The notes beneath the pieces are model-generated. The model saw only the letters and a program-made list of their open reading frames with translations, was not told the origin of the DNA and did no database searches. A program made the position numbers and the translations under genes. From a virus: a stretch of DNA of 64,000 bases. Below, one piece after another: positions 38,341 to 56,131 of this stretch (within the stretch, counting starts at the first letter, position 1; the number at the start of each line of letters is the position of its first letter). The DNA lies in IMG/VR virus record IMGVR_UViG_3300045988_167796, positions 68,032 through 132,031 of that record. One strand, 5' to 3'.

Positions 38341-41300
38341 TTACAATATTCTTCTTGGAACTCCGGCAGCATAAGCATCTTTTGCAATATTATTACTTAT
38401 CTTTCCGGTCATACTGTTAACGAATTCTCTGTTATTTACAAGCTGTTTCGATAATGCCTTTAAATCATCCATTACATTTTTGTCAACATTACCATTCACA
38501 GTAATCAAAGAATCATAATGTACTATAGGAGCATTTTCCGTATTATTGTAATATGTAGCATATTTATTTATGTTCTCACTAAATGCTTTCATAATATCCA
38601 TAGAAGGCTTTATGTTCTTCGCAAATTCTTCAGGTATTACATATTCCCCAGGTTTAATTCCAATGACTCCTTTATCGCCATTTGCTATCACAGCTTCACC
38701 GAGGAATCCTAACATATTAGCCGGGATATAGTTGTCAACGATACCACCTTTTGAATATCCTGCTTTCTTTAACTGGTTTAACAACCAAATATTCTGAGTA
38801 GCAGTACCAGAATACGTGCCAGATCCTTTCAGATTCTTCCAAAGTTGTGTTCTAGCAGCGTTATCAGATTTATAGCCATAATAAGCCATTCTATCTACGA
38901 TCGATACATCCTTGCTAAGGCTACTATTACCTTTCATGGATGTATCTTTTGCAATACCAGACCATATATCTGTATTTGTTGTTCCTGTTGTTGTATTATT
39001 TCCTTCTAAACTTCCAGTCCACTTCAACTCATCATTTTGAGTCGCGTTGTTATTATCTGCCAAAGTCCCGAACGTGCCAGGCTTTTCAACAACTGTAACT
39101 TTACAAGTAGATTTCTTTTTAGAACGTGCTTCCTCAACAGTAATTATTGCTGTACCTTTAGAGACAGCAGTGACAACACCTGTATTTAGAACTTTTGCAA
39201 CTTTGGGACTGCTTGAAGACCATGTGAAATTCGCAGGAGCATTTTCCGGAATGACATTTGCTTTTAAAGTGATCTTATCACCAATAAACATCGTCACTCT
39301 TGACTGGTCTAAAATAACCTTATCGGCTGAAACATATTCAATACCAGTTCCACCACCTAAAGAGTTATTACTGTTATTCACAGTATCTGCAACTTTAGAA
39401 GTGTTTCCAGATGTGAGAACTTTAAGTCCAGTATTATTGGAAGCCTGAACTGCTGTATCTGCTTTTGTATCTTTAGCGCTTCCGGTATTGAACACATTGG
39501 AAACTTCCTCATATGCAGATTTTGATTGCTCTAAAACTTCTTTTAGCTTCTGTTCAACAGTATCAAGTGAATCATTAAAAGTTTCTGATAACACAAGACC
39601 ATGGTTCTCAATAATAGAATCAAGATTACTAAAAGTACTTTCATACGATGTAGTTACTTGTGCAAGCATACTGTCAATAACCTGATTCTGCATCTCTGTG
39701 TTAGTACGCAGAGAATTAAGAGTGTTATCAAGATTCTTGTCAATATCTTCACTCAACTGATCGTATGCATCAGACTTCATTTCATATTCATGATTGTATC
39801 TGGTTTCTTCAAGTTCATCCTCTGCATCTGCAATCTGAGCCTTGATTTTAGCAAGACGGGCTTTTGAACTGGCATCCGTAACACCTTCAAGGGCTGCTGC
39901 CTGTGCTTTCAGAATATTCAGTTCCTTAGTCTGATTTTTCAGTTGTTTATCATAATCATGATATTTTTTCTTAGCGTCCAGAGCGTTCTTGTATCCAGTA
40001 ATATCTTCCTGCATTAACTCATTTTTCTTCTGTAGCTGTTCCTCATACAAATCAAGTATAGACTGCTTATATGTTTCAGCAGCTTTAGCAGAGTCAAGAA
40101 GACCATCCTGTAACTCTTTCAGCTTTTCATTATATTCTTCCTGTGACCAGTTACCGTTTGCATATTGCTCATTGAGATTATCAATCTGCTTTCTGTAATT
40201 CGCCATCTTGGTTTTGGTGGCATCAATACTTTCCTGGAGAAGCAGGAGATTAGTCAAGCCATTTTCTGTAAATGAACCATCCGAATCAGAAATGAATGTA
40301 TCAGAATTCATAAGGTCACGAAGAGAATCATATTCAGACACAAGATTGCTCAATTTTTCCTGTGCATCATCAAACGGCTTCCAACGAAGTTCCATCATTG
40401 AATTCTTAAGTTCTTCATTATCAGCAGAAAGATTCAATATTTCTACGTCAAGCTGAGAAATTTCATCTGCATACTTCTGATATTCTTCGCTGTTATATGC
40501 ATATTTCTCCATGCTCTTAGCTTTTTCTTCACGTTCCTTATACAGAGCTGCAATCTGACTGTTGTTATTTTTAATCTGCTCTCTGTAGTCTTGCTCAGTA
40601 ACAGTATAACCATCAGCAACTTCTTTATAATTCGTAGCAGCATCCAACTTATCTGATACGCGACTATATTTATTAACACGCCATTCCGTAATCTGTTCTC
40701 TGGACTCATCCAGTGTTTTCGTCCATTCTGTAAGGGATGTCATACTCTCATATAAAGCCCGTCCAACACCAGTAAGATTGGCCTGCATTTCGCGGTATGC
40801 TGTTGATTCTGTACCATATTTCTTACCGTATTCTGCAAGTTGCTTTTTATATGCATTGTATTCAGCCTTCAGCATTGCAATATTGCTCTTTTCATATGCA
40901 ATCTGTTGCTGGATCAGTTTTGTATAGCCGGAACCAGGAGAAATGGTCATACCGCTTGTTTCACGGTAATCCAATTTTGCACTGACTAAATCTTGACCTG
41001 TTTTATTCTTATTTATATAAGAATCGTATACATCCAATATATTAGAAAGTTTCTGTGCGGCAAGTTCTACCTGTTCAGCATATTTTTCTTCTGCTGACTG
41101 ACGGGCGGCAATAGCCTTGTCATACCATTTTGAATATGCTTCCACCTTGCTCAGTTCGTCTTCTGAAAGCTGTTGGATGTCTACAATACCTTCTTGAACT
41201 TTCTTTTTTAGTTCAGCAGATAATCCAACCTGAGAAGCAACATTGTCGGCATAAGCCATGTATTTTTTATAAGCATCTTTATAATATTTTACTTCTTTGC

Positions 41301-44300
41301 CTGTTAACGTTTCGGCAAGAGTGATATTCTTATTCTTCTGATTGATAGAAGACTTGTTTTCGGAAATTGCCTTGTACAGGTTGATCTTACTTTCTGTTCT
41401 GGATATGAGTGTTTCAATCCAATCTTTAACATTATCAGAGATTTTCTTGATAAGGTCTGAGAGTGCTTCGCTGGCTGTTGAAATAGAATCTGCAGAAGAA
41501 GAAAGATCGGAAGCGGCTTTTTCTAAGTCTTTAGAAGTCGATGAATCTGATGTTGTATTTTTATTACCGCCAATAGTTTGTCCTGAACTATTTATGGTAG
41601 CATAAGCAGGCATACCATTATAAGCTAATGTACCGGACGCAAGGGCACGAGCATGTCCTTTTGCTTTACCATGCTTCATAAGATCTTCTGTTTGTTGTGC
41701 GTTTAAAACTATGTCGCCTTTCTTTAATGCCTGTGTATGCATTCCAGGAGGTAGTAACATCCATTTATCCCCACGGACAATTGACTCACGACCTAACTCA
41801 TTTACTAAAGCAACTTCGTCATGTTCTAATGCTACTTTTCCATTTGAATATGCATTCTTATAATTAATTGCATTATATGCTGTTCCATAAGCATGTGTAG
41901 GAACTGAAGATGGAGACGACATTGTACCATGAGCAACCCCATTACCACTTTTATTTACTGTGATAGTAGCAGTTCTATGATTTATGCTTGCAACAGCTGC
42001 ATTTACTGCATTTATAAGATTGTTTGTATTACCATCAATTTTAATGGTTGCAGTTCTATGATTAATGTTTGCAACAGTTGTGTTTGCTACATCTATAGCC
42101 TGAGATGGGTCTGCATCAATTTTAATTTGTGGTTCTTGGTCTTTTGCGTATTCTACAGTTTCGTCTACTTTTTCTTTTGCTGGCTCATTATTACCATCAA
42201 TCGTAATTTCTGTAGTATTTTGGCTTGCAAGTAATTGACCAAATTGGTCTTCAGCCATCCTGACTGTAACAGATGCATCTGCGCCTTCTTTAATTGTCTG
42301 TAATGACTCACGTATTGCAGATAATTTTTCTGTAGCACCTTCATCATTAACGTCAACACCACATTTAACAGCAAATTCAGGATCTTCCATACCAAGTAAA
42401 GCATCAATATCGCCATTTGTATTATTTAAAGCAAGATTTACTTTTTGTTGTATTTCAGTTTGTTCTATCAACGAACATATAGCATCGTACTCATCTGTTT
42501 CTGGAACAAGTTTTGCTTTGATATTAATCAGATCGGTATATCTTTGTGAAAGCTCGTCATCTGACATTTCAGAAATATTGGCGGTCAAATCAATATTTGA
42601 ATTAATCTGACCGAGTTCCTGCATCCTTTCAAGCTTAGTAATACCATCTTGTACAGACTGAGTATCAACATCAACTTTTGGTTTTAAAGCACCAATAGCT
42701 TGTAGTGCGTTCAAAAGCTGAGATACTTGTTCTTGTGATAATCCGGCCTGATCTGCAATTGCCTGTAAAGCATCTTCGGCAGCTGTCATATCACCAGATA
42801 CATCATATTGTCCATTTTCTAATTTGATATTCTGTAAATCTTCTGCACTATACTGGCGCAGTACATCGAAATAGTCTTTAAACGCATCTTTTTGTTCTAT
42901 CAACTTAAATTTTGTTGTGTCAAAATTCTTAGTTTCTTCTGGTGATAAAGATAATCCTAAGTCTTCAGCTGATAATGGATTTTCTATAGAACCAATTCCT
43001 GCGTCTTTTATTGCTTGATTTAAAGAAGTTTCGTCAACTTCGAAGTTGGTAATTTTTACGCCGTACTCTTTTCCAAGATTCTCAATTACTTTACCAAGAC
43101 CTTCTGCTAATTGAGTATTTCCGGATTTTTCAGCTTCTTTTCTTATTTTATTTAAATAAGATACTTGATCTTTTAAACTTGAAAGACCTTCTGCATATGA
43201 TTCTGCGGAAACCTGTTTATATGTTTCTGTAGCAGTGGTCAAATCAATAACCTGACCTTTTAACTGCTCAATAACTGCCATTTGATCTGCAATTGCTGTT
43301 TCGGAAGCGCCTGATGATTGCATTTCAGCAAGTTTTGCATACGCATCTACGAGTTTTGTATTTGCTTCCTGTATCTTTTCTGTTCCTTCTGTTTCAGAAA
43401 GAACAGTAGTATCAACAAATCCATAATCCTGTGTTTTAGCAAGAACATCATTAAAGAATTCTTGTCCCATATCCATATCATAAGCTGCCTTTTTAGCATC
43501 TTCGATATTAATTTTCCAAGACTTTACTCCGTTAGCAAGAGTTTCATATGTAGCGTATCCTTTTTTATTTAAATCTTCTAAGAAGTTTACTACACCTTTA
43601 GAAGAATCTTCTGTAAGATATCTTTGAGCTTTTGCATAGTTTTCTGCAAAGTTAGCAGCGTCTTCAAAACCGTTAGGAGATAAGTACTTAGCAACAGTTT
43701 TGAAATCATCTGTTCCAACTAAGTTTTTATCATATGCTTCTTTTGCGGTCTTTAAATCAGAAATCATCTGATCATAATTACTTCCGGCATTCTTTGTGTT
43801 CTTAGCATCTTGAATTGCCTGGAAATCAGACATTTGTTCCATCTGAGATTTATACTGAGCAAAATATTGAGCTTGTCTCTGCATTAATCCTTCAAGATTA
43901 CTTTGCATTGCCTGTAATTTAGAATCAGTATTTCCTAATCCTATTTGATCCTGATAAGACTTAATAGCATCTTTCTGACGGTTGATTTCTTCAGTAAATT
44001 TACCTTCCTGAATGGAATTTTGTTGATTGATAAAATCTTTAAGAGCAGAAGTGTTGACTTTTACACCTTTAGCTGATAAATAGAATACAGAAGACGGATC
44101 GTATCCTTCAAGGTCACTAAACTGAGTATTCAGCGCTTTTATTGAATCATTCGTTAATCCTGTTTCAGACTGAAGTTCGCTCATTGCAGATGAGAGAGAA
44201 GAAGAGAGATTTTCAGCATTTGTCACCGGAAGATTCTGCATAGCTTCAGTCCACTCATACTGACTAACAAGCATATTATCTATAGATGCATTGCATTCAT

Positions 44301-46638
44301 CTATAGCATTTTGATATTCTTTTGCTTTTTCAGGATTATCGTTATACGACTTTTTAAGATTCTCATTTTCTTTAATTTGCTCTTTAAGATTTGTAATCTG
44401 ATCATTACCATTAGATATTAATTTCGCATAGTCTGATTCATTTACTTTTAATCCAAGAGCAGTTTTATTATCCATATCTGACTGAATTCGAGAAGCATCA
44501 TTTTGAATATATGATAAATCTTTTCCAAGATCTGCTAATTTCTGTGTATTGACATCAATTTCAATCTGAGGTCTTAATGATTCAATTTTGGCAATCCATT
44601 CAGTAATTGTTGCATATGCCATTGACGGATCTGCTGAAAGCTTCAAAATTGCAGTCATTGCGTTTTCATCACCGGCATATTGTGACATTAATTTATTAAT
44701 GTTATTACCAAGAATTTCCTTATTAAAATCAGAACCGGCAGAAGCAAATAAATTGTCACTTATAATTTTCTGGATATTATCAAAGCTAATATCCGACATA
44801 TTCACAGAATCCAATAATGTCTGTATGTATTTCTCAACATTCTTCTTTTTTTCAGGATCTGTTATATCTTTAGTTTTTTCACGAATACCAATAAGTGACT
44901 CGTTAAGATTTGATAATGTTAATTTAGACAATCCTTGTTCAAGATTATCTGTCTCAGATGCAAGTTCCGGAAATTGTTGAATCAAATCTGTAATATCAGA
45001 ACTCTTAAAGTCTCCAGATTTCAAAGAATCCATAGCGGATTTTATAGATGATATATTAGACTGTAATTTGTCTGTAATATCTTGAATAGTAGAAGGAGCC
45101 TCTTCGCCTTTATCTAATAAATCCTCTAAGGAGATTGGATTTTCTTGAAGCACTTCTTTTGCTGCATCTTGTGCTTTCTTAAAATTATAAGAAATATCTT
45201 CGAGATTCCAATCAGAACCATCAAGATTTTGAGTTGAATAATAATTCCAGAAGTTTTCTATTTCTTTATCTGTCTTATCATTAAAGAAATCAAATAAACT
45301 TGGCCCAAAAACATTTTCGTCTTTTAAGAAAATATCTTTTAAGTTTTGTTTGATTCCATCTATATTATAAGCATTTGGATCCGCTATATACATGATTTGA
45401 TCTGCTAAAGTTTCAGCACTAATTCCTGCTTTATCTAAAGCATCAGACAATCCTTCTATTTCAGAAATTTTTGATATAATAGCGTCTTTTCCTTGTTTCT
45501 TCCCTAATCTAACAAGACTTTCTTCGACATTTTCAAATTTTGCTTTTGCAAATATGTTATTGATTTTTTCTACTTGAGATTTTGCCGCGTCTACACCTGT
45601 AGAGTAATTATTGTTCATATTATTTACTCTATCAACAATGCTCTCATATCCCGTCTTAACATTTCCGTTTACATCATAAAAATACGAAGCAGATTCATTA
45701 ATATCTGTTATATTCTCAGATATCTTATTATTAAGATCGCTAATCTCTTTTTCATATTCTTTAATTTGTCTTGTATTAGAATTATATTCGCGTTTATCCC
45801 AGAATTTTGTTAGATCTAAATTTGCTTGTTGTTTATAAAGTTCATCGCGTCTTTGCTGAACAAATTTCATTCTTTCGATCATACTGTTTGTATCATCAAT
45901 AATATCATTATTTGTATACGTTTCAGCACCATCTTCTGAGAATGTATATTTTTTATCTTTTGTTTCTAACTTTGTTTTTGCGTCTTTTGTAGCTTGTTCT
46001 TCTTGGATAGTTGCAATTTTTTGTTTTATTGCAATTTGCGCTTCCAGAAGGTCATTTTGTGTTTGCAAGTTACTTAATTCTGCCTGATCAACAATAGATA
46101 AATTTTCCATTGCATTTAATTCAGCAATTCTTGATTTTGTTGTTTCAAGCTGAGAATTTAATGAATCTAATTCTGATTTTGTAGATGTGAATGTACTGGA
46201 AGATTCGTCAAAATGCTTATTTGCAGTTTTTTGTGTGAAAACAAATTTATCATCTAATTTTTTAAATACTGCAAATGCCGCTGCAGATGCTACAATAGCT
46301 CCTGTAAGAAGAGGAAATGCAGTTACAACGCCTTTTATAACCGTCCACAGTCCAGTAAGAGCATTCTTACCAGTGCTAGCCATTTCTGCAAGTTTTCCAC
46401 CGACACCAGTTGCTGCGGTACCGACATTATTGAGAGCAGCTTCTGCTTCAGCTATATCACCAAGATTGAATGCTTTATATAATGCTTGAACGTTAGTATC
46501 TTTACCAAGATTTGAATATTTTGATAACAATTCTGCTGCTTTTTCTACGGAACCAGTCCCTTTTAACAGTTTATATAAATCATCTATGTTAGAAGTCTGT
46601 ATTGCTTTTATAATTTTCCCGATATTACTTAATGACAA
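38341..46638 (-). CDS. tape measure protein, distal segment (2765 aa; hydrophobic TMP core, long coiled coils, C-terminal Big_2 domain)
   Basis: N-term GVGGKLAEMASTGKNALTGLWTVIKGVVTAFPLLTGAIVASAAAFAVF typical TMP hydrophobic block; annotated TTG start has no RBS and the frame is open upstream to 46683. Confidence 0.6.
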   Translation of the reverse strand: MSLSNIGKIIKAIQTSNIDDLYKLLKGTGSVEKAAELLSKYSNLGKDTNVQALYKAFNLGDIAEAEAALNNVGTAATGVGGKLAEMASTGKNALTGLWTVIKGVVTAFPLLTGAIVASAAAFAVFKKLDDKFVFTQKTANKHFDESSSTFTSTKSELDSLNSQLETTKSRIAELNAMENLSIVDQAELSNLQTQNDLLEAQIAIKQKIATIQEEQATKDAKTKLETKDKKYTFSEDGAETYTNNDIIDDTNSMIERMKFVQQRRDELYKQQANLDLTKFWDKREYNSNTRQIKEYEKEISDLNNKISENITDINESASYFYDVNGNVKTGYESIVDRVNNMNNNYSTGVDAAKSQVEKINNIFAKAKFENVEESLVRLGKKQGKDAIISKISEIEGLSDALDKAGISAETLADQIMYIADPNAYNIDGIKQNLKDIFLKDENVFGPSLFDFFNDKTDKEIENFWNYYSTQNLDGSDWNLEDISYNFKKAQDAAKEVLQENPISLEDLLDKGEEAPSTIQDITDKLQSNISSIKSAMDSLKSGDFKSSDITDLIQQFPELASETDNLEQGLSKLTLSNLNESLIGIREKTKDITDPEKKKNVEKYIQTLLDSVNMSDISFDNIQKIISDNLFASAGSDFNKEILGNNINKLMSQYAGDENAMTAILKLSADPSMAYATITEWIAKIESLRPQIEIDVNTQKLADLGKDLSYIQNDASRIQSDMDNKTALGLKVNESDYAKLISNGNDQITNLKEQIKENENLKKSYNDNPEKAKEYQNAIDECNASIDNMLVSQYEWTEAMQNLPVTNAENLSSSLSSAMSELQSETGLTNDSIKALNTQFSDLEGYDPSSVFYLSAKGVKVNTSALKDFINQQNSIQEGKFTEEINRQKDAIKSYQDQIGLGNTDSKLQAMQSNLEGLMQRQAQYFAQYKSQMEQMSDFQAIQDAKNTKNAGSNYDQMISDLKTAKEAYDKNLVGTDDFKTVAKYLSPNGFEDAANFAENYAKAQRYLTEDSSKGVVNFLEDLNKKGYATYETLANGVKSWKINIEDAKKAAYDMDMGQEFFNDVLAKTQDYGFVDTTVLSETEGTEKIQEANTKLVDAYAKLAEMQSSGASETAIADQMAVIEQLKGQVIDLTTATETYKQVSAESYAEGLSSLKDQVSYLNKIRKEAEKSGNTQLAEGLGKVIENLGKEYGVKITNFEVDETSLNQAIKDAGIGSIENPLSAEDLGLSLSPEETKNFDTTKFKLIEQKDAFKDYFDVLRQYSAEDLQNIKLENGQYDVSGDMTAAEDALQAIADQAGLSQEQVSQLLNALQAIGALKPKVDVDTQSVQDGITKLERMQELGQINSNIDLTANISEMSDDELSQRYTDLINIKAKLVPETDEYDAICSLIEQTEIQQKVNLALNNTNGDIDALLGMEDPEFAVKCGVDVNDEGATEKLSAIRESLQTIKEGADASVTVRMAEDQFGQLLASQNTTEITIDGNNEPAKEKVDETVEYAKDQEPQIKIDADPSQAIDVANTTVANINHRTATIKIDGNTNNLINAVNAAVASINHRTATITVNKSGNGVAHGTMSSPSSVPTHAYGTAYNAINYKNAYSNGKVALEHDEVALVNELGRESIVRGDKWMLLPPGMHTQALKKGDIVLNAQQTEDLMKHGKAKGHARALASGTLAYNGMPAYATINSSGQTIGGNKNTTSDSSTSKDLEKAASDLSSSADSISTASEALSDLIKKISDNVKDWIETLISRTESKINLYKAISENKSSINQKNKNITLAETLTGKEVKYYKDAYKKYMAYADNVASQVGLSAELKKKVQEGIVDIQQLSEDELSKVEAYSKWYDKAIAARQSAEEKYAEQVELAAQKLSNILDVYDSYINKNKTGQDLVSAKLDYRETSGMTISPGSGYTKLIQQQIAYEKSNIAMLKAEYNAYKKQLAEYGKKYGTESTAYREMQANLTGVGRALYESMTSLTEWTKTLDESREQITEWRVNKYSRVSDKLDAATNYKEVADGYTVTEQDYREQIKNNNSQIAALYKEREEKAKSMEKYAYNSEEYQKYADEISQLDVEILNLSADNEELKNSMMELRWKPFDDAQEKLSNLVSEYDSLRDLMNSDTFISDSDGSFTENGLTNLLLLQESIDATKTKMANYRKQIDNLNEQYANGNWSQEEYNEKLKELQDGLLDSAKAAETYKQSILDLYEEQLQKKNELMQEDITGYKNALDAKKKYHDYDKQLKNQTKELNILKAQAAALEGVTDASSKARLAKIKAQIADAEDELEETRYNHEYEMKSDAYDQLSEDIDKNLDNTLNSLRTNTEMQNQVIDSMLAQVTTSYESTFSNLDSIIENHGLVLSETFNDSLDTVEQKLKEVLEQSKSAYEEVSNVFNTGSAKDTKADTAVQASNNTGLKVLTSGNTSKVADTVNNSNNSLGGGTGIEYVSADKVILDQSRVTMFIGDKITLKANVIPENAPANFTWSSSSPKVAKVLNTGVVTAVSKGTAIITVEEARSKKKSTCKVTVVEKPGTFGTLADNNNATQNDELKWTGSLEGNNTTTGTTNTDIWSGIAKDTSMKGNSSLSKDVSIVDRMAYYGYKSDNAARTQLWKNLKGSGTYSGTATQNIWLLNQLKKAGYSKGGIVDNYIPANMLGFLGEAVIANGDKGVIGIKPGEYVIPEEFAKNIKPSMDIMKAFSENINKYATYYNNTENAPIVHYDSLITVNGNVDKNVMDDLKALSKQLVNNREFVNSMTGKISNNIAKDAYAAGVPRRIL

Positions 46639-46660
46639 TATGATAAATAAGATGTATAAT
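46632..46660 (+). promoter_or_regulatory. sigma-70-like promoter ATGACA-17-TATAAT for cargo genes
   Basis: hexamers upstream of aaaaaaggagag RBS. Confidence 0.45.
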
Positions 46661-46686
46661 ATAAATAAAAAAGGAGAGCGATTTCA

Positions 46687-47112
46687 ATGTTAATAAAATG
46701 TCCTGAGTGTGGTAAAGAAGTATCAGATCAATCTGAAGCATGTATTCATTGTGGATATCCGCTGTTAAAAAACAGGAGATCGTCTGTGACTGAGTACCAT
46801 GGAGAATGCCCATTCTGTCATGCAATAGATAATTGGAGAATAGATACTGAAAAAGGAGAAGCTATTTGTAATAAATGTGGATGGCGAGAAACTATTGATG
46901 ATACGCAGTGGAAAATATATTGCAAGCTACAAAGAGAACGTGAACAAAAAGAATCCGAAAAAAAACAATCCGAGAATCTTCCAAAATGTCCAAAATGTGG
47001 TTCAACATCTATAGGAACAAAGAATAGAGGATATTCTCTTATCTGGGGATTTTTAGGATCCGGAAGCCCTAGAAATGTATGCCAGAAATGTGGCTATGAG
47101 TGGAGGCCGTAA
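46687..47112 (+). CDS. triple zinc-ribbon protein (3x CPxCG...CxxCG)
   Basis: strong RBS; three CxxC..CxxC pairs. Confidence 0.55.
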
Positions 47113-47134
47113 ACTTACCAAAAGGATATACACT

Positions 47135-47896
47135 ATGATTACAAATAATGAAAACGACAGAAGAATCATTAAAGAAACATACGATTATTTCAATAAAAAC
47201 GCTTATAGCATACAAGAAATGAGTATTGATAATATATATGTATGCAATGATATTCAAAACGACATTAATATATTTTTAAACAATGATCATATAAATAAGC
47301 AATGTAATGGTCATACTATTTATAAAAATGCAAAAAAAACTGAAGATATAATTATTTTAGTAGAATTGCGTGAAAATATGCCAGATAACATAATAACATT
47401 ATTCCACGAATTTATTCATGTGTATGATATCAAGTTGTTCTTACAAAAATATCATACTCTTGATAATGATTATTTTTATGCATATACAGTATGGAGTGAA
47501 TTTCATGCTTGTTATATAAGTGAAAAATTATTAATAGAATACTATAAAAATAATGGTATCCCAAATATAATAAATGATTTTTTAAGTACAAAAGAAGAAC
47601 AAATCAATGAAATACTTAAATATATAAGAATTGCTCACAACCGCGAGATGTCAATATTTGATAAAATGAATATTTTTGCTAAGCTTTTTCTTTTCGGGTA
47701 TTATGAAGATTGCGGCTATCATTTTGTATATGAATTTATAGACCATTTTTATAATGATTTAGAAGATCGTATTAAAAATTATAATATTACAAATTATTTA
47801 TATCAATGTTTGGAAAATGATTTTAATATTGACACTATTACTTATTTTAAAGAGTTGATTTTTGTTAAAGATATTAGCGACTCATCTACTTCATAA
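47135..47896 (+). CDS. HExxH-motif protein, possibly ImmA/IrrE-like metallopeptidase (ORF track start 47075)
   Basis: HEFIH motif; aaaaggat RBS before ATG 47135. Confidence 0.45.
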   Translation: MITNNENDRRIIKETYDYFNKNAYSIQEMSIDNIYVCNDIQNDINIFLNNDHINKQCNGHTIYKNAKKTEDIIILVELRENMPDNIITLFHEFIHVYDIKLFLQKYHTLDNDYFYAYTVWSEFHACYISEKLLIEYYKNNGIPNIINDFLSTKEEQINEILKYIRIAHNREMSIFDKMNIFAKLFLFGYYEDCGYHFVYEFIDHFYNDLEDRIKNYNITNYLYQCLENDFNIDTITYFKELIFVKDISDSSTS

Positions 47897-47910
47897 TACG
47901 TAAAACATTA

Positions 47911-47945
47911 AAAGAGCAGATTATTCTTTCTGCTCTTTATCATCT
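47911..47945 (+). terminator. rho-independent terminator (10-bp perfect stem)
   Basis: aaagagcaga-ttattctt-tctgctcttt. Confidence 0.55.
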
Positions 47946-48036
47946 TTATAAAATATTTTATTATCATCAATACATATTCCATGACATATAATTGTGCTAG
48001 AATCGATTATTTGATATCTATCTTTACATATAAACA

Positions 48037-48501
48037 TTAATTCCAATTCACCATCCATGATATCACCTCTTCAATTGTCATTTCTGGAAATACTGTTTTC
48101 ACTATTTCAAAAGTATGCTTTTTTACTATTGTTTCATTTATCTCTTGAAAATAATAATGTACTAATTCTTCAATAAAAATAAATAATTGCATATGTTTAT
48201 TATTGCATCTAATGATTTTTTCCATTGAATAAATAATCAATGGCATACATCTCCCATATGTTGTAATAATTTCTTCTGTCACTGAAAAACTTCCATCTTT
48301 AGAAAAAATTAAATTAACCGGAAGATACTTAGAAGGATCTATTTGTTTTTCGTACAACGATCTGCTTAAAGCTTCTAATCCTTTTGTAAATAAGCATGCC
48401 AACTGTTCTGGAACTTCATATAAAGCATTCATATGAATCCTATCAGAAAAATATGGCGGAGCTATAGGAGCATAAGTTTTTACTGAATTATCTATTCTCA
48501 T
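48037..48501 (-). CDS. hypothetical 154-aa protein inside TMP intervening sequence 2
   Basis: ORF track; aaaggatt RBS. Confidence 0.4.
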   Translation of the reverse strand: MRIDNSVKTYAPIAPPYFSDRIHMNALYEVPEQLACLFTKGLEALSRSLYEKQIDPSKYLPVNLIFSKDGSFSVTEEIITTYGRCMPLIIYSMEKIIRCNNKHMQLFIFIEELVHYYFQEINETIVKKHTFEIVKTVFPEMTIEEVISWMVNWN

Positions 48502-48911
48502 ATTGATATAATCCTTTGTATTATTTGTATGATTATATCATAAATAATTAAATATGCAAACTGTTTTTACCTTCATCAGCAAACGGCAGAAGAGTAGTGC
48601 CGAGTGGAATACCACTATTTTTTTACCTTGGAACATTCATTAAAAGCATATACAATTATGGCATGTATATACTCTCAGGAAGGGTGCTCTCTCTACACTT
48701 CCTAACTTTTTATATGTTTCCCTCGCCATTGCTTGCGCAACTTCTACTAACGTATCACATATTACTAAACGTAAGTTAGGTTGGCTCGTGCGTCACCGCG
48801 GAACATAAATATATTTCTATAAATATGCTTTTGTTTCATCCTTTTTCGCTGTAGCGGCTTCGACGAATTAATCCTGTATTTATTTTATGCCGATCATAAT
48901 CACTGCATTGA

Positions 48912-49385
48912 TTACCACGCCATTATGTGGTTCTCTTTACAATAACAGCCCCATAAGTTATATCGGGAATAACAGCCTGGATTTGGCTGAGCTACGGCAT
49001 TGCTAAGTCCTCCGGACTTAAAGAATTTAAATAATTGTGAAAGACCATTTTTACCAAATGATAAGCCAGCGATTGTGGCTACCAAAGTTTTGATTGGTCC
49101 AACTGTTTGTGCTAGATCTGTAAACGCCTCTGTAAGACTTATTACAAAATCCAGTATGTTTTTAGTTCCTGCAGAATCATAGAATGACAACCAGAACTCA
49201 TCCATTTGAGCTTTTATTTTAGTTATCTTACCTGTAAATGATTCTTCGTATTTTGCCTGATTCTCAAGTGCATTTCCTTGTGAATTTGTTGCTTCTGTAG
49301 CTAAAGACATAGCATCTGACCAGGCTGTAAGTATATTTTTGAATTTTGATGACTGTCTTGTCGATAAATTAAATACGATTCGCAA
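48912..49385 (-). CDS. tape measure protein, middle segment (about 130 aa of TMP-like sequence; 3' end probably intronic read-through)
   Basis: TMP-like hydrophobic GPIKTLVATIAGLSFG; no RBS; frame open upstream to HE stop. Confidence 0.45.
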   Translation of the reverse strand: MRIVFNLSTRQSSKFKNILTAWSDAMSLATEATNSQGNALENQAKYEESFTGKITKIKAQMDEFWLSFYDSAGTKNILDFVISLTEAFTDLAQTVGPIKTLVATIAGLSFGKNGLSQLFKFFKSGGLSNAVAQPNPGCYSRYNLWGCYCKENHIMAW

Positions 49386-49418
49386 GATCGTACCGATATT
49401 GTTAATTATTTTCTCCTT

Positions 49419-50333
49419 TTATTCTTCTATAAAAACTCCATATTTTATAAACATATCAAATAATATATCATCCATAAATAATTGGTCCCAGTATGGAATT
49501 CTAATAAGTTTAATATTATTTTGTTTACAGTAATCTGTTTTTATTTTATCTCTTCTTTGAACTTCTGCAAATCTGTTATTTGCTTCTTGTTCTGACATTT
49601 TATTTCCTATTCTAATTGATTTATGATGGAATTCTCCGTCGTATTCTATAGCAATATTATATTCATCTAAATAATAATCAAACGGAAGAGTGTATTTATC
49701 CTTACAATCGCTAAATCGTTTTTCTCTTGTGTATTTTAAATTCCACATATCCAGTATTTGTCCGATCATATTTTCGTAGAAATGACTTTTACAATGAGGA
49801 CAACTTGTGCTTTTTAATAAATTTCCTGAAAACTTTTCTTGAACACCAACATTTTTATGTTTGTTACATATATATTTTATATATGTATGGTTATTTTTAC
49901 TATAAGATTCTACAAATGTAAAATCTCTTTTCTTGCATTCTTCCTTCCAATAATCATTATTTTTTTTATGAGAATTTATTGTCTTTTCTCTTCCGCACAT
50001 AAAACATCCTATTCCTCTTAATAAGTCACATAAATTAATTTGCTGTATGCCATAATCAGGATGTTGTTTACATATATACTTCATTTTAGTTGTGTAATTT
50101 ACATATACTGTATCAAGTAATGTATAACCCTTTTTATCAAATAATTCTTTTACTTCTTGATATGTATAAATTTTTGTATTGTTTACAGTTTTTTCTTTTC
50201 TAATTAAACGAAGTCTTCTTCTTTTAGCTTTTATAGATTCTTCTGTAGTTTGAAAAAATTCAGACAATTCTTTATCTGTTTTATCTTTCCATAATTCTTT
50301 TAATTTATCTTCGTTTTCTTTTGTCCACTTCAT
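49419..50333 (-). CDS. intron-encoded homing endonuclease (tandem Zn-finger-like modules + PD-(D/E)xK/DUF559-like nuclease)
   Basis: two repeats KYICxxHxxxGxQ....LL..xxCxxC; C-term IEYDGEFHH...KTDYCKQNNIKLIRIPY; aaaggag RBS. Confidence 0.55.
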   Translation of the reverse strand: MKWTKENEDKLKELWKDKTDKELSEFFQTTEESIKAKRRRLRLIRKEKTVNNTKIYTYQEVKELFDKKGYTLLDTVYVNYTTKMKYICKQHPDYGIQQINLCDLLRGIGCFMCGREKTINSHKKNNDYWKEECKKRDFTFVESYSKNNHTYIKYICNKHKNVGVQEKFSGNLLKSTSCPHCKSHFYENMIGQILDMWNLKYTREKRFSDCKDKYTLPFDYYLDEYNIAIEYDGEFHHKSIRIGNKMSEQEANNRFAEVQRRDKIKTDYCKQNNIKLIRIPYWDQLFMDDILFDMFIKYGVFIEE

Positions 50334-50353
50334 ATATTATCTCCTTTGTATTA

Positions 50354-50548
50354 TCAATTTTTTGCATAAAAAATCGCCAGGGCTTTAAATAGCTCTGACG
50401 TTTTCGTGTACTTATATGTTGTTACTTCATTTATTACTTTTGTAAACGAAGGTTTTATACCGATACTCAATAAATATTCCTTTTCTGGAGTATATTGAGT
50501 AGAATATTCTTTATCATATTTTTTCATTATTCTATCATTAATTAACAA
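50354..50548 (-). CDS. small ORF within intron (uncertain)
   Basis: ORF track only. Confidence 0.2.
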   Translation of the reverse strand: MLINDRIMKKYDKEYSTQYTPEKEYLLSIGIKPSFTKVINEVTTYKYTKTSELFKALAIFYAKN

Positions 50549-50902
50549 TATCCTTATATTTTCATATAAGTCTAGACTATATCTTCACCTTCAGCATTAC
50601 CTGTTCAGGGTACACCATTTCCATTTAAGGGATTTTCACCTACTTCATTTGCGGTTAAGCCGTACTCCTATTGTTATAGATATTTATTCTCTAGTCTATA
50701 ACCCGACATGGGGATAGTCGTTAAGCGTTCTCCATATATAAAAATTATATTTAGGAGCTTCGTTGTGGATTGCCTATTGTTGCATCTTCTTATTTTTTAT
50801 AACATTCATATTACTTTTCAATAATATTGTAGTATAAAAAGCTTTAAGGGTTCCCACAGTTAGATGTATTCTTAATATATATTTCTATATATTCAGCCCA
50901 AA

Positions 50903-53900
50903 TTAAGCTGCTACGTTATATGAAATGTTACTTTGCTGTGCGTCGGACAGAGTATCCCACTTAGCACTCAGTTCACTCAAAATAACGTCAAGATCACGGA
51001 ATGATCCGTCAACATTGTATACTTCAATTCCAACTTCATGAAGAGATTTAGAAGCGTTAGATAATTCTTCATTACTTACATCTGAAGCATATTGCGGCAT
51101 TTTACCGACTTTTGATATTCTAGTAACAATTGTCTTTATTGCGTTTCCGATGGATCCACCATCTTCACGTGTTCTTTCGGCCACTTTTGCAGAAACAGCA
51201 GCTAACTGTTCATAAGACATACCTGCATCATATGCAACCTGACCAGAAGCTTGCACAGCATCAGAAATAACCTTTATTCCACGCGCATAATCTATTGCGA
51301 CGTTCGATGAAATCTTATCCAATACATCAACTACATGCATAGAAGCATCTGCAGCACTTTGAGATCCATCTTCAAGCATATTGAACTGCTGTAAAATGCC
51401 TTGTACCTGGTCAGCAGCAGTAGAAGTATCAACGCCGCTTAAGTTACTCAGAATAGCTGTAGGTTTTGCAGTTTCATTAATCTCTTCTGCAGTGGTATTC
51501 ATATTTGCATAAATCTGATAGATATCCATTGCATTTTCAAGAGACATAGAAAGATCCTGCGCCATATCAATAGCAGATTGACCTAAACTATTAAGCTGTT
51601 CTTTGGTAATATCCATTGTATAGCTAATAGTAGTAAGATTATCATCATATGCTTTAAGCGTTGAAAATCCTTGTTGAAGTTGATTTATCATTGTAGATAT
51701 AATTCTATAGCTACTTACATATGAAGTAACCATTTGCATAATGTCTTTAAGACTTCCACCAGCAATACTTCTTAATGCACTTCCAAATGTTTTGAATGAT
51801 GCATTAGCTTTTGATTGCTCTGTAGATGTAATACGAAGTGCATTATTATATGTTTGTAATGTACCAGTTACAGTTGTGATTGCTCCTGCTTCGTTTTGAA
51901 ATTGAATTGTCGCAGTACCTGCATTTTCATTTACTTTAGATGATACTTCCTTACCAAGAGAATTTAATTCTGCATATTGTTTTACTCCTGCAATAACATC
52001 AGATATATCTTTTGTAATACCTTCGCTACCAGAAATGAGAGTTCCTTTACTGTTAGTCTTATCATATGCTTTTGCATTTTTAGAAAATTCTTTGATTTTA
52101 TCTGACAGTTCATCTAACTGTTTTATTTTTTCATCAGTGTCAGTTGTATCGTTTGATAAAATACCATTAAAAGCTTCTGCAAATGAATTAATTTTTGTAG
52201 TGTAAGATGCTACTTTATCTGAAGAATTAGCAAGCTTATTTAAATTTGAAATTTGCTCTTCAATGTTAAGCGCTTTTCCGCCAAATCCATCTTTCCAAAA
52301 AGCCATTGTGTTTGATGCTTTTTGACTTGCTTCTATAAACTTCTGGCTATATGTAGACGCATCTCCGTTATAATCTCTTGTTAATTTATTAATTTCTTCC
52401 TGTACGCTAGCAATATCATTTTTTGCCTGAGCAGAAATAGATCCTGTTTCTTTTATCTTAGATGCAAATGTTTCTAACTGATTAGTAATTTTCTGATTAT
52501 TAGATGCTAATGAATCAGTAGTTTTTGAATCAAAAATAGACTGAATATTACCAATAGCATTTTGCTGGAAATCCTGTCCGTAGATATTATTAACTTCTTT
52601 TTTTAAACTTTCATAAGATGCTCTAACAACTTCCATTGCATATATCTGTTTATCAATATCTCCTGAAAGAAATTGAGAATTATTTTTACCGGACATTTGT
52701 AGAATTTTATTCTCAGAATCTCTCATAGCAGTGTAAGATTTCTTCATAGCTTCTACAAGATTATCATTGTTGTTCTTTGAATTCTCAATTGCCTTTGTAT
52801 ATGATTCATTATACTTATCTACTTTATCAGGACCTAAGATACTTTTATTTTTAGATAAGAAATCACTTTTATAAAAAGTATCTACCTCGGACTTTAATGC
52901 GGAAACTTTATTTTTTGCATTTTCAATTTCAGACGTATAGTCTGCGAACGGATTGTTTGCTTGTTTACCTTGAAGAGAGAATAATTCATTCTGAGCTTTT
53001 TCTAACTCTTTTACTTTTGCAAGAGCCTTATCGTATTGATCAATAATCGGTTTCTTTACTTCTTGATTATCCTTTGTATTTTTGAGATTGTCTGTAGATT
53101 TTCTTAAGTTTAATTCTGCATCTCTATATGCATTAGCAATGTCTTTTGAAATAAATTTATCTTTATCTTTAAAAAGATCATTACTAATAATTGAGTCTAA
53201 AGATTTTTTGTCAGATTTAATATTTTTATTTAAATCCTCAATTATTTGCGAATTTTGTTGATCAGAAGATTTACTTATTTCTTTTGATAAATCATTTTGT
53301 AATTTAGATATATTCTTTGAAAGATTTATCGCTTGTTTTACTTTGTTTGTTATGTATTCATATATCGCATCAACATTATTAAAAGCAGAAGTGCTTTCTG
53401 TAGGCAGGTTTATATTACCAAAATTTTCAGATGCATTATTCTTGTCAATAATTGAGAGCCATTTATCCCAGTTAGATTTAAAGCTTTCTGTAACAATTGG
53501 TAATGATTGTTCTGATTTATTTAAAGACTTGAATTTTGCATCAAATATAGATAAATCAAGATTTGTAGATGCACCAGATAATATATTACGAAGATTTTCT
53601 ATTTGAGACGCAACTTGATCAGAATACTTGAAAGAGTCTTTCAATCGTTGTTCAAGATCATTCAGTTCTTGTTCTTTTGCCTTTTTCTTTTCATCAAGTA
53701 AAGCATTCTTTTTATTAGAATCAGATATTCTTTTGTTGTCTTTTTCTAAATTTTGCTGTTGCTTTATTTGTGTATTACATTCAGAAATTGAGTCGCGTAG
53801 TTTACCAGCAGCTTCTGCTTGTTCGTAGATACCAGATGCATCCTTTAATTCTTCATTTAAATCTAACATCCTACCTACTGACTCAGACAATTCGTCTGAT

Positions 53901-56131
53901 GGATCATTTAAAGCATTAAAAGCACTAACAACGCTACTTACTGTTGATTGCAAATTATTAACACCAAATAAATCTTTCTGATTTGTTTTAGAAGAAGAAA
54001 ATATCTTTTTCTTTTCTGCTTCAACACGTTCCATGGATTGAGCAAGACCGTCGATTTCATCAACAGAAAATATATGTTTTAATCCCATATATCCATCTAA
54101 TTGCATTGCATTAATTTTGCCGCCCATTTGAAGGTCTATATTAGCAAGGAATTTATCTAATTTTTCATTTGCTTTTTGTACTTTTACAGATTCTTTTTCT
54201 GCTTCTGTTTTAAGACGCTTCATGTCTTCAACAATACGTTCTGAAGATACTTCTAATGTTCCTTCATCTGTAGGAGAGTAAGTGGTAGAAGTGGTAATAT
54301 ATGCATTTTGATCTTTTTCTGTTTTTACTTGAGTATGCGAACGAATATTCCCATCAGAATCCTTTATAGTTATTAGCTTATCAGAATCTCCTTTTGCAGG
54401 AATAGCGTCTTCTGTGACTGCTTTCATTTCTTTTCGTTCTTTTTCTATTGCTTGTGAAGACTTCTCTGCACCGGCAGCAACCATCTGATTCGCACTATTA
54501 AAGTTTTCTTTTGCAGTAGCAGCTTTTCCAGCAGCTTTTTCAACTTTCTCAAATGCTTTTGATTCATTTTCAAGCTGTTCATTTGACTCTTCTGTATTTG
54601 TCTGTGGTAACGCTGGAGTTTGATTAGAAGCGTCAGGAGCATCAGGAGATTGACTTGGTTTATGAGAAATTGGAGTAGAAGGAGTATTTGATACAGGTTT
54701 TTCTTCTGATTTTTGCTTATCTGTTACTTTAGGTTTTTCTTCTTGTTTTTTCTTTTTAGAATTTGCCGTTTCAGTTTTTTTCTTCTGTTTAGCAACCTCT
54801 TGTTTCGTTTCATCAAGTTTCTTTTCTGATTCAGCTTCCTGGTTATTCGCATCTACGATTGCCTTTGCTTCTTCTTGCAAAGGTTTTGTGTCAACTTTAG
54901 GAGCCTGAATTTCTGCCAGCTTTTTAGAGAACTGCTCGTCTGTCATAAAAAGAACATCAGAAATCGTACTTTTAGCCAATTCGTATTCTTTACTAAGTCC
55001 TTGAATGTAATTTTCAATTATATCATTAGGCTTATTACCATGTTTTTTATATACAGCATAATCTCCTAAGAAATTCATAATTTTAGTAGGAGTTTCTAAT
55101 TCATCCAACGCGATTTCAAGATCCTTCGCTTCTCTTGTTTTACCTTGATAATCTTTTAATATCTTGTTTACATTCTTTCTAGCTTGCTCTGGTTTTTGTG
55201 TACGAAAACGAGACATTTTACCAAACATTTTATTATATTCATTTTGATTTTTTAATGCCTCTTTTGCATTGTCGCTATATGAATACTCTAACGCTGCTAT
55301 TCCTTCATCTAGTTTTTTAGTATACTTTTCAAACTGTGTAGAACTAAATTCTTTTCCTTCATTTACACTATTAATATACTTATGGATTCCAGATCCATCA
55401 TAAATACTCTGTATTAATCCTTGCCTTATTTTATCATATTGAGATTTTGGATCTACTTTATTAATTTTTTTTATAACATCGCTTCGTAATTGCTTACCGT
55501 CATCTTTATTTATTTCATTTAATGTTTTTATCAATGAATAATATAATTGAGCTGAATCTCTATACTTCTTAATTGCATCCGGATTCATTGATGAAATATT
55601 TGGAAACGAACCTGTGCGCTGAGTGAATTCACTTTCTAATTGCGTAATTGCCTTTTCAATTCTTTTTATTTTTGTATATCTATCTGTGAGTTCTGTTCTT
55701 TCTACTTCAGATAGTGTCTTACCTATTCTTTTTTCATAATTAGTAACATAAGTTTTTACTGTACGCTTTCCAGAATTGTCTAACTCTGGAACGTATTTCT
55801 CTATAGTGTTCCAATTTGCTTTTGGAGGTTTATTTCGAGTAAAGTCTTTATTAACGCTGTGTACAATTTTTTGTATTCCATCTTTAATTGTTTTTTCAGC
55901 ATTTTTAGAAAGAGTTGGCGTTACAAGAACTTCGATATCTTTAATACCTTCCAATTTTTTCAATCCTGATGTATCAACTTTTGGTTTTATATTCGATTTT
56001 TCTTTATCTAATTTTTCTAAACTTTCTGTAAGTTTATCTATCTTATTGATCGGCTCATCTAGTTTATTTGCAAGAATATCTCCGCCTTTTACTGCATCCG
56101 ATATGTCAATACCACCATTTTTTATTCCCAT
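50903..56131 (-). CDS. tape measure protein, proximal segment (1742 aa; K/E-rich coiled coil + TP901-family TMP core domain truncated at the C-terminus)
   Basis: C-terminal ~350 aa resemble the TMP conserved core (…AILSNLSGVDTSTAADQVQGILQQFN…VISDAVQASG…); ends abruptly …SNISYNVAA*. Confidence 0.6.
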   Translation of the reverse strand: MGIKNGGIDISDAVKGGDILANKLDEPINKIDKLTESLEKLDKEKSNIKPKVDTSGLKKLEGIKDIEVLVTPTLSKNAEKTIKDGIQKIVHSVNKDFTRNKPPKANWNTIEKYVPELDNSGKRTVKTYVTNYEKRIGKTLSEVERTELTDRYTKIKRIEKAITQLESEFTQRTGSFPNISSMNPDAIKKYRDSAQLYYSLIKTLNEINKDDGKQLRSDVIKKINKVDPKSQYDKIRQGLIQSIYDGSGIHKYINSVNEGKEFSSTQFEKYTKKLDEGIAALEYSYSDNAKEALKNQNEYNKMFGKMSRFRTQKPEQARKNVNKILKDYQGKTREAKDLEIALDELETPTKIMNFLGDYAVYKKHGNKPNDIIENYIQGLSKEYELAKSTISDVLFMTDEQFSKKLAEIQAPKVDTKPLQEEAKAIVDANNQEAESEKKLDETKQEVAKQKKKTETANSKKKKQEEKPKVTDKQKSEEKPVSNTPSTPISHKPSQSPDAPDASNQTPALPQTNTEESNEQLENESKAFEKVEKAAGKAATAKENFNSANQMVAAGAEKSSQAIEKERKEMKAVTEDAIPAKGDSDKLITIKDSDGNIRSHTQVKTEKDQNAYITTSTTYSPTDEGTLEVSSERIVEDMKRLKTEAEKESVKVQKANEKLDKFLANIDLQMGGKINAMQLDGYMGLKHIFSVDEIDGLAQSMERVEAEKKKIFSSSKTNQKDLFGVNNLQSTVSSVVSAFNALNDPSDELSESVGRMLDLNEELKDASGIYEQAEAAGKLRDSISECNTQIKQQQNLEKDNKRISDSNKKNALLDEKKKAKEQELNDLEQRLKDSFKYSDQVASQIENLRNILSGASTNLDLSIFDAKFKSLNKSEQSLPIVTESFKSNWDKWLSIIDKNNASENFGNINLPTESTSAFNNVDAIYEYITNKVKQAINLSKNISKLQNDLSKEISKSSDQQNSQIIEDLNKNIKSDKKSLDSIISNDLFKDKDKFISKDIANAYRDAELNLRKSTDNLKNTKDNQEVKKPIIDQYDKALAKVKELEKAQNELFSLQGKQANNPFADYTSEIENAKNKVSALKSEVDTFYKSDFLSKNKSILGPDKVDKYNESYTKAIENSKNNNDNLVEAMKKSYTAMRDSENKILQMSGKNNSQFLSGDIDKQIYAMEVVRASYESLKKEVNNIYGQDFQQNAIGNIQSIFDSKTTDSLASNNQKITNQLETFASKIKETGSISAQAKNDIASVQEEINKLTRDYNGDASTYSQKFIEASQKASNTMAFWKDGFGGKALNIEEQISNLNKLANSSDKVASYTTKINSFAEAFNGILSNDTTDTDEKIKQLDELSDKIKEFSKNAKAYDKTNSKGTLISGSEGITKDISDVIAGVKQYAELNSLGKEVSSKVNENAGTATIQFQNEAGAITTVTGTLQTYNNALRITSTEQSKANASFKTFGSALRSIAGGSLKDIMQMVTSYVSSYRIISTMINQLQQGFSTLKAYDDNLTTISYTMDITKEQLNSLGQSAIDMAQDLSMSLENAMDIYQIYANMNTTAEEINETAKPTAILSNLSGVDTSTAADQVQGILQQFNMLEDGSQSAADASMHVVDVLDKISSNVAIDYARGIKVISDAVQASGQVAYDAGMSYEQLAAVSAKVAERTREDGGSIGNAIKTIVTRISKVGKMPQYASDVSNEELSNASKSLHEVGIEVYNVDGSFRDLDVILSELSAKWDTLSDAQQSNISYNVAA

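Follow-up and report, generated by a model that had tools for sequence, protein, structure and literature searches.

A group I ribozyme with partly antisense gene cargo and a predicted 3′ splice site kilobases away interrupts the tape measure protein gene of Lachnospiraceae phages

The DNA analysed here, referred to as the window, is a stretch of 64,000 nucleotides (nt) of the IMG/VR virus record IMGVR_UViG_3300045988_167796 (positions 68,032 to 132,031 of that record), and the element in question is the second of two interruptions of its tape measure protein (TMP) gene, which is encoded on the minus strand. This interruption begins with a group I ribozyme and was delimited as a group I intron of 2354 nt (46636..48989, minus strand), the boundaries being set by the P1 and P10 guide pairings and by in-frame joining of the exons. 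The predicted splice sites are 48990|48989 (5′) and 46636|46635 (3′), and the terminal intron nucleotide is a G. The ribozyme (P1-P9) takes up the first ~410 nt of the intron and the remaining ~1.9 kb form a cargo tail. On the strength of the ribozyme structure, the covarying guide pairings, the collinear in-frame junction and the conserved layout, splicing is estimated to occur with a probability of about 0.8. An earlier sequence-only reading had proposed that the TMP gene is interrupted at this place by an RNA-level intron with opposite-strand cargo. This proposal is supported by the covarying ribozyme, the exact 3′ site and the in-frame collinear exons; the interruption itself stands, but its limits had been placed at 48950 and 46640 and have to be corrected to 48989 and 46636.

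The TMP gene is split into three open pieces (56131..50903, ~49361..48990 and 46638..38341). Piece 1 (56131..50903, minus strand) encodes 1742 amino acids (aa) with a PhageMin_Tail domain, exon 2 (48990..49361, minus strand) comprises 124 codons (TRQSSKF...GGLSNAVA) and has a U at 48990 as its last nucleotide, and exon 3 (38341..46635, minus strand) comprises 2764 codons beginning with SLSNIGK. The 3′ splice site coincides exactly with the start of the 2765-aa open reading frame (ORF) at 38341..46638 (minus strand). As had been read from the sequence, this ORF begins at a TTG without a ribosome binding site (RBS): no Shine-Dalgarno (SD) motif precedes it, and upstream of the TTG the frame remains open over 15 codons, as far as the stop at 46684-46686. 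The exon-2 ORF continues 25 codons into the intron, where it meets a stop at 48912. When joined at the inferred sites, the three pieces give 4630 codons with 0 internal stops, and the exon 2/exon 3 junction would read ...GCCGUAGCU|UCAUUAAGUAAU. The unspliced products would be one polypeptide ending in ...NAVAQPNPGCYSRYNLWGCYCKENHIMAW and another starting with (M)SLSNIGK. The uninterrupted TMPs of Enterocloster phage CB473P1, Bacillus phage Thrax2 and the faecal phage fragment MT837813 are collinear across this junction (for example, KVGG--SLSNVIGLV in an uninterrupted TMP versus KSGGLSNAVASLSNIGKII), and the homologues P0001-P0011 are continuous over the exon 1/2 junction. Judged by these alignments, the TMP pieces make sense only as one joined protein. 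Without both introns, the TMP (38341-56131, minus strand) would have 4630 aa, a great length for a siphovirus, from which a tail of exceptional length is to be expected.

The 5′ part of the interruption had been noticed earlier as a noncoding block of elevated GC content that resembles structured RNA, and both properties were confirmed. The GC content is 0.39 in the block (48580-48989) versus 0.24-0.28 in the adjoining cargo ORFs, and the folding of the block is better than that of shuffled sequences (z = -2.75, 0/100 shuffles as good). By comparative analysis the block was found to follow the canonical group I order P3-P4-P5-P4′-P6-P7-P3′-P8-P7′ including the P3/P7 pseudoknot. Pairs were counted for 12 helices in 13 non-identical sequences, with slid-partner controls and 500 shuffles. 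The core cells were paired in 90.3% versus 33-43% in the slid controls, and changes on both sides were found in 31 of the 68 core pairs versus 5-9 in the slid controls; neither value was reached by any of the 500 shuffles. P3, P4 and P7 are 100% paired over the 13 sequences, and P7 differs by two compensatory changes between the window (GAGCA/UGUUC) and the related locus L001 (GACUA/UAGUC). The core extends over 48631..48876 on the minus strand, with P3 at 48876-48872/48680-48676, P4 at 48867-48861/48792-48785, P6 at 48780-48775/48706-48701, P7 at 48689-48685/48635-48631 and P8 at 48675-48665/48653-48643. Two peripheral hairpins follow P7′ in the P9 region (48584..48615, minus strand), and both covary between lineages (GUGG/CCAC versus AUAG/CUAU and CGGCA/UGCCG versus CGGCG/CGCCG). 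The intron starts with CAGCC, which is the 5′ strand of a first hairpin (CAGCC...GGCUG, 48973..48989, minus strand) that likewise covaries (CAGCC/GGCTG, TAGCC/GGCTA, CAACC/GGTTG, TGACCC/GGGTTA). At the J6/7-P7 and J8/7-P7′ positions, where the window has GAGCA/UGUUC, the segments of L001 read ...CAGAGAGACUA... and ...AAUGCAUAGUCC, which may resemble the classical R and S elements. The ribozyme block retains 70-79% nucleotide identity between lineages versus ~31% protein identity of the flanking exon 3. From this comparative evidence the structured block is identified as a group I ribozyme, with P1, P3-P8 and P10 supported by covariation.

Instead of its partner at 48701-48706, the 5′ strand of P6 (48775-48780) can also engage a similar segment close by, in a local hairpin immediately 3′ of 48775 (window, CCUAAC...UUUAG; L105, CGGC...GCCG). 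Several lineages retain the two options, which may represent alternative folds.

For the identification of the splice sites, the first 130 intron nt of 10 lineages were searched for a G pairing with the last exon-2 nucleotide, which is always U, and each candidate was scored by the uninterrupted P1 with exon 2 plus the uninterrupted P10 with the start of the downstream ORF. This unbiased search gave one outstanding guide G per lineage at the homologous position +36..+51, with a P1 of 5-6 bp and a P10 of 4-8 bp and a sum of 10-13 versus 5-7 for the runner-up. In the window, the G of the internal guide sequence lies at +40 (48950) and pairs with U(-1), the P1 strand is +40..+45, and 4 contiguous bp of P10 were counted in the search. 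The guide G pairs with U(-1) in 12/12 lineages, and P1 covaries (AGCU/GGCU, AGAU/GUCU, AAGU/GCUU, AGGU/GCCU). The exon-3 starts fall into at least five classes (UCAUU, UCACU, CAGUU, CAAGU, CGAUU), each of which fits its own guide but not those of the others. In every lineage the intron ends in G, and the contiguous P10 measures 4-11 bp overall. The rule was put to a prediction test with five lineages found later, in all of which the G followed by the complement of the guide marks precisely where the long downstream ORF begins; the P10 and intron lengths are 10 bp and 3670 nt in L189, 10 bp and 3416 nt in L190, 11 bp and 7108 nt in L188, 6 bp and 3915 nt in L170, and 6 bp and 2945 nt in L191. 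For L001 the guide rule places the splice site three codons farther downstream than the start given by the gene call (...AAAACG|UCACUUA). The inferred junction strings are GTCGTAGGT|TCATTARRTAAAATCGG for group A and AGCATAGGT|CAGTTWAAA for group B.

Three other assignments were dropped. A P1 formed from the first hairpin and the following nucleotides was inconsistent across lineages, the true guide lying 36-51 nt into the intron. A 5′ splice site 4 nt upstream, with a U·G closing helix S0 (described below), left no in-frame 3′ site preceded by G, and the pairing of a J8/7-like segment with exon 3 fails in group B.

The pairing with exon 3 is considerably longer than the contiguous P10. The guide region (48945..48969, minus strand) contains, at intron +21..+39, the complement of the 20 nt with which exon 3 begins. 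The 3′ splice site and the guide-paired exon-3 nucleotides together occupy 46616..46636 (minus strand; terminal G at 46636, exon 3 from 46635). The same complementarity was returned by a repeat finder as the inverted pair I4 (46616-46631 with 48954-48969, 16 nt, 94% complementary). Exon 3 +5..+20 pairs with intron +21..+36, by which the P10 of the window reaches ~17 bp (ΔG -19.9, z -5.8). A P10 of 17-19 bp is also present in group A, L191, L137, L188 and L190, with z-scores from -3.4 to -6 when the window is included. The distal part differs between the window and group A by two compensatory changes (AUAUCGGGAA/UUCCCGAUAU versus AAAUCGGAAA/UUUCCGAUUU). The nucleotide-level conservation at the beginning of exon 3 (20 nt) is accounted for by the extended P10. 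On the upstream side, 11 contiguous nucleotides of exon 2 (48990..49000, minus strand) are bound by the intron, of which -1..-5 are the exon strand of P1 and -6..-11 pair with intron +98..+103 (CGGCAU, 48887..48892, minus strand) in a helix designated S0. S0 covaries in 6 lineages and was the top helix of the scan, with a covariation count of 9. The guide on its own appears to locate the distant 3′ site.

The layout is common to more than 60 related phage and prophage loci of Lachnospiraceae, and because it recurs in so many loci the arrangement is far beyond chance. In L001 and L002 the order is the end of the upstream TMP ORF, the noncoding block, opposite-strand genes of which the last encodes a zinc-ribbon protein, a spacer of ~50 nt, and the downstream TMP ORF. 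Further members were retrieved with two short motifs from the noncoding block. About 85 IMG/VR contigs were found in this way, nearly all with the same layout, together with prophages of Frisingicoccus caecimuris DSM 28559, Frisingicoccus metagenome-assembled genomes (MAGs), a Lachnospiraceae MAG and Faecalicatena contorta. The intron length ranges from 1.2 to 7.1 kb among the relatives. All homologues reaching the end of exon 2 either stop at the residue aligned with ...GGLSNAVA or enter the same intron sequence, and presence/absence polymorphism was not seen among them. The F. caecimuris locus (L107, 2251-7815 of NZ_SLXA01000001.1) carries two tandem units, as does L094. In each L107 unit a short upstream exon (MPDYKVKITPELD...) is combined with the same ribozyme and with one or more antisense zinc-ribbon genes, and the first unit is followed by a 671-aa ORF resembling exon 3. 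The presence of YomU and YomW homologues nearby indicates that the phages are SPbeta-like siphoviruses, and a tyrosine integrase (4941-6149) and a GH25/NlpC-P60 endolysin (8170-9810) in the window point to a temperate phage or prophage.

The cargo tail of the window encodes three proteins. The sequence-only reading had described a plus-strand ATGACA-17-TATAAT promoter with an RBS, genes for a triple zinc-ribbon protein and an HExxH protein, a perfect 10-bp-stem terminator and a 154-aa minus-strand ORF, and all of these features were recovered. The promoter (46632-46660, plus strand) matches at 11/12 positions, better than any other promoter candidate of the region, and the 3′ splice site falls within its -35 hexamer. 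The promoter is followed by the RBS AAAGGAGAG (46670-46678, plus strand) ahead of the ATG at 46687, with which the antisense zinc-ribbon gene begins (46687..47112, plus strand; 141 aa, three CxxC...CxxC units; Pfam PF13240, 4.7e-8). The antisense HExxH gene (47135..47896, plus strand; motif HEFIH) corresponds to a public call of 253 aa (P0042), its ORF being open from 47075. It gave no family match, and a homologue search returned only the HExxH protein itself; weak relatives of the gene lie antisense in L009, L025 and L027. A terminator-like hairpin with a 10-bp stem (47911-47938), which scores on both strands, separates this gene from the converging sense ORF (48037..48501, minus strand; 154 aa, PHROG 33355). 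The latter is preceded by its own promoter-like sequence TTTGCA-17-TATAAT with a TG extension (48560-48532, minus strand), and homologues occupy the same position in L025 and L191. Searches of the three cargo proteins revealed no match to a nuclease family (Pfam, PHROGs, PADLOC), no homing endonuclease and no defence match (PADLOC). With its own promoter (11/12), a bidirectional terminator and a content that varies between syntenic relatives, the cargo has the marks of a phage moron, and its GC content is lower than that of the surroundings.

The zinc-ribbon gene is the sole gene present in every intron member. It is antisense, adjoins the 3′ splice site and starts 22-91 nt away from it, and its conserved parts are CPECG...C.HCGYP at the N-terminus and CP.CGS...G.FG...C..CG..W/F at the C-terminus. 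The middle of the zinc-ribbon protein encoded by the antisense ORF 3089-3586 of L189 (KVKLIKIIREITGLDLKRGKDVVDNL…EEVGGAVKI) may resemble the C-terminal domain of ribosomal protein L7/L12. The content between the ribozyme and the zinc-ribbon gene is variable: L105 has no intervening cargo (intron of 1169 nt), L001 carries a Spo0A_C-like gene, and other relatives carry genes for membrane proteins or an AAA ATPase. Candidate defence genes lie in the introns of L027 (4889-5557), L019 (4096-4842) and L030 (4622-6068). Among the cargo of the relatives, trypsin-like proteases match the PADLOC candidate PDC-S45 (3e-40, 8e-19), and a HigB-like toxin is found beside a protein with helix-turn-helix and Peptidase_M78 domains. 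In a more distant TMP (L195 11519-14422, the contig of P0017 in the 2.78-Mb assembly ERZ21862505), a nearby site is occupied by a different group I ribozyme (GUUCAGAGACU ... AAUAUAGUCC), which gave no nhmmer match to the ribozyme family of the window and for which the best P1 and the best P10 are 7 bp each. An antisense gene of the zinc-ribbon family (…GKQWHCEDCGSDF) lies at the end of that intron beside the 3′ splice site as well, from which it follows that the zinc-ribbon gene travels with the TMP region across two ribozyme types.

The following course of events is proposed. Upon transcription of the late tail operon, the ribozyme would fold first and hold 11 nt of exon 2 via P1, with a U·G pair at the splice site, and via S0. 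Attack by guanosine would cleave the 5′ splice site, and the freed exon 2 would stay bound until the distant 3′ splice site emerges and is captured by the unusually long P10 (~17 bp, intron +21..+39 with the first 20 nt of exon 3). Ligation of the exons would yield the mRNA for a single TMP of 4630 aa. The looped-out tail would act as a carrying site for the sense ORF with its own promoter and for the antisense zinc-ribbon/HExxH operon, which would be transcribed from the sigma-70-type promoter across the 3′ splice site up to the bidirectional terminator. The cargo is presumably expressed by the host polymerase, in the manner of a moron, while the tail genes are silent. Cis-splicing with read-through of the internal terminator is the preferred reading.

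Several observations weigh against this reading. An Rfam comparison for group I and group II elements had been suggested as a check, and with Rfam 15 no group I match (Intron_gpI) was obtained at E <= 10 for the region (45500-51500), the window, the block or 10 related loci (L009-L053); this negative result has little power, because the lysK-like interruption 1 of the same gene was equally missed. A helix closing the cargo loop was not found between the ribozyme end and the last 60 intron nt (z ~0, 12/13 lineages). An intron-less allele that would define a homing site was not found for the two abundant groups, A and B, in viral and metagenome contigs. The codon preceding exon 3, which always ends in G, is ATG, TTG, GTG or CTG in most lineages and thereby has the appearance of a start codon, and a promoter-like TTGAAA-18-TATATT (46687-46658) could drive exon 3 separately. 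Finally, the terminator-like hairpin also scores on the sense strand (47938-47911), and in L001 a sense terminator-like hairpin directly follows the ribozyme; both would hinder cis-splicing unless they are read through.

The sense-strand hairpins and the promoter-like sequence just upstream of exon 3 would be accommodated by trans-splicing, in which the internal terminator ends transcription of the upstream half, exon 3 comes from a transcript of its own, and the long P10 serves to join the two RNAs. A P10 of 17-19 bp and the binding of 11 exon-2 nucleotides far exceed the needs of cis-splicing and resemble guide-mediated assembly, and introns of up to 7.1 kb with several opposite-strand genes point in the same direction. 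In organellar split group I introns and in engineered trans-splicing ribozymes with extended guides, RNA pieces are united by long antisense pairing; the window intron shares with split introns the long guide pairing to the exon, separate transcripts being here a candidate only. However, the promoter ahead of exon 3 is a 10/12 match, of which 34 are expected by chance in DNA of such AT-richness, and it is not visibly conserved in other lineages. Moreover, unlike in known split introns, there is no extra pairing between the region after the ribozyme and the last 60 intron nt (z ~0), and late phage transcription frequently reads through intrinsic terminators. Trans-splicing is considered unlikely; if true, it would be the first case of a natural trans-splicing group I intron outside organelles, the natural cases being, to our knowledge, mitochondrial.

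Still less probable is that no splicing takes place, that the TMP is made as separate polypeptides with the downstream ORF initiated at the TTG at 46638, and that the ribozyme-like RNA is a relic or has another role, such as that of an element of the 3′ untranslated region. The possible start codon in most lineages would fit such a scheme, as would the separate genes annotated by gene callers and the failure to find a spliced or intron-less junction in public contigs (no spliced junction of groups A and B was present in viral or metagenome contigs). A relic, however, would not retain compensatory changes in P1, P10, S0 and the core next to exons of ~31% identity, and the uninterrupted relatives encode a single collinear protein. 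Additionally, exon 3 is preceded by the non-start codons ACG in L001, TCG in L019 and AAG in L170, and no RBS or SD motif lies ahead of exon 3 in any lineage examined; RBS-bearing starts in relatives had been named as an outcome that would speak for separate genes. Removal at the DNA level by site-specific excision or inversion before late expression, for which a tyrosine-integrase-family gene is available elsewhere in the window (4941-6149), and a group II intron or other element are highly improbable, since there are no flanking direct repeats (the only boundary-spanning repeat is the inverted pair forming P10), no recombinase in or beside the block, no GUGYG start, no reverse transcriptase ORF and no match to an Rfam group II domain.

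The first interruption of the TMP gene (49362-50905, minus strand), located 372 nt upstream of the second, is an independent mobile group I intron of the ordinary kind. Over its 5′ block (50551-50673) it shares 79.7% identity with the lysK intron of Staphylococcus phage K, and its coding content is an ORF of 64 aa and an HNH-type homing endonuclease of 304 aa (PHROG 559, 1.2e-44). Interruption 1 is polymorphic, being present in some relatives and absent from others, and further relatives have a different insert of ~1.65 kb located ~6 nt farther downstream (after ...NVAATR).

Group I introns in TMP genes have been described for prophages of the Bacillus cereus group, where they occupy the three sites TMP-IVS1/2/3 (Tourasse & Kolsto 2008, PMC2504315). 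As in the window, the site is set there by the P1/P10 guide pairing and several introns may occur per TMP gene. The B. cereus-group introns are compact members of IA1/IA2 with a homing endonuclease gene, its remnant or none, and are sporadic (PMC2504315). In contrast, the introns of the present family measure 1.2-7.1 kb, carry several non-endonuclease genes (some of them antisense), have the splice site kilobases away from the core, and are present in every close relative found. Opposite-strand genes within group I introns are likewise known, namely the antisense homing endonuclease genes in self-splicing nuclear rDNA introns such as Didymium squamulosum L2066 (PMC9548176). These introns share with the window the protein gene on the strand opposite to the intron, but reside in eukaryotic rRNA and have just one gene, for a His-Cys endonuclease connected with the mobility of the intron, whereas in the window the host gene is a protein-coding phage gene and the cargo includes an antisense operon complete from promoter to terminator, without nuclease signature; the antisense genes of this intron family are accompanied by variable, defence-like cargo. 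The earlier claim that antisense cargo operons within an intron of a structural gene are undescribed seems to hold for multi-gene, non-endonuclease, partly antisense cargo in a phage intron; as worded it was too broad, because antisense homing endonuclease genes in nuclear group I introns (PMC9548176) and TMP introns (PMC2504315) are known.

Other systems share single traits with the window intron. In group II introns, the pairing of the intron-binding sites IBS1/IBS2 with the exon-binding sites EBS1/EBS2 likewise has ~11-12 contiguous nucleotides of the 5′ exon bound by two intron segments; this likeness goes no further than an analogy: in the window, the core, P10, terminal G and U·G splice site have group I character, and neither domain V nor reverse transcriptase is present. 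The sunY (nrdD) intron of phage T4 reportedly has a remote 3′ splice junction that uses a 3′-terminal structured domain (Michel and colleagues, early 1990s). The sunY intron agrees with the window in the order of a 5′ ribozyme core, an ORF and a far-downstream 3′ splice site returned to the core; the window differs in having no closing structure, a P10 of 17-19 bp and a much longer, multi-genic tail. Phage morons resemble the window cargo in their own sigma-70-type promoter and terminator, lower GC content and variation between syntenic relatives, and resemble the cargo of this intron family in including defence or toxin-antitoxin candidates. Morons sit between genes, whereas the window cargo lies inside a gene, which would be tolerated only because the surrounding RNA is removed. 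A literature search retrieved no phage group I intron in which kilobases of partly antisense cargo, comprising several genes but no endonuclease, are united with fixation across a phage family, a bipartite grip on the 5′ exon and a P10 of ~17-19 bp. A phage intron that carries several genes, some antisense and none for an endonuclease, and has a splice site kilobases away from its ribozyme seems to be new.

Annotation pipelines currently give three unrelated genes at this TMP locus, and since Rfam misses both introns of the window, such elements are probably under-counted. F. caecimuris DSM 28559 is a cultivable carrier of the arrangement. The two-helix grip on 11 nt of the 5′ exon together with the pairing to ~20 nt of the 3′ exon bears on how group I introns choose distant or separate substrates, and the exon-binding scheme is relevant to the design of trans-splicing ribozymes. 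The universally kept antisense zinc-ribbon gene may conceivably be a new kind of intron-associated factor, or its promoter may gate the production of the TMP between lysogeny and lysis. If splicing is true, an essential structural gene of widespread gut Lachnospiraceae phages would depend on a ribozyme with a 3′ site 2-7 kb away, and the looped-out RNA would provide a protected site for accessory genes in either direction, including candidate defence and toxin-antitoxin modules.

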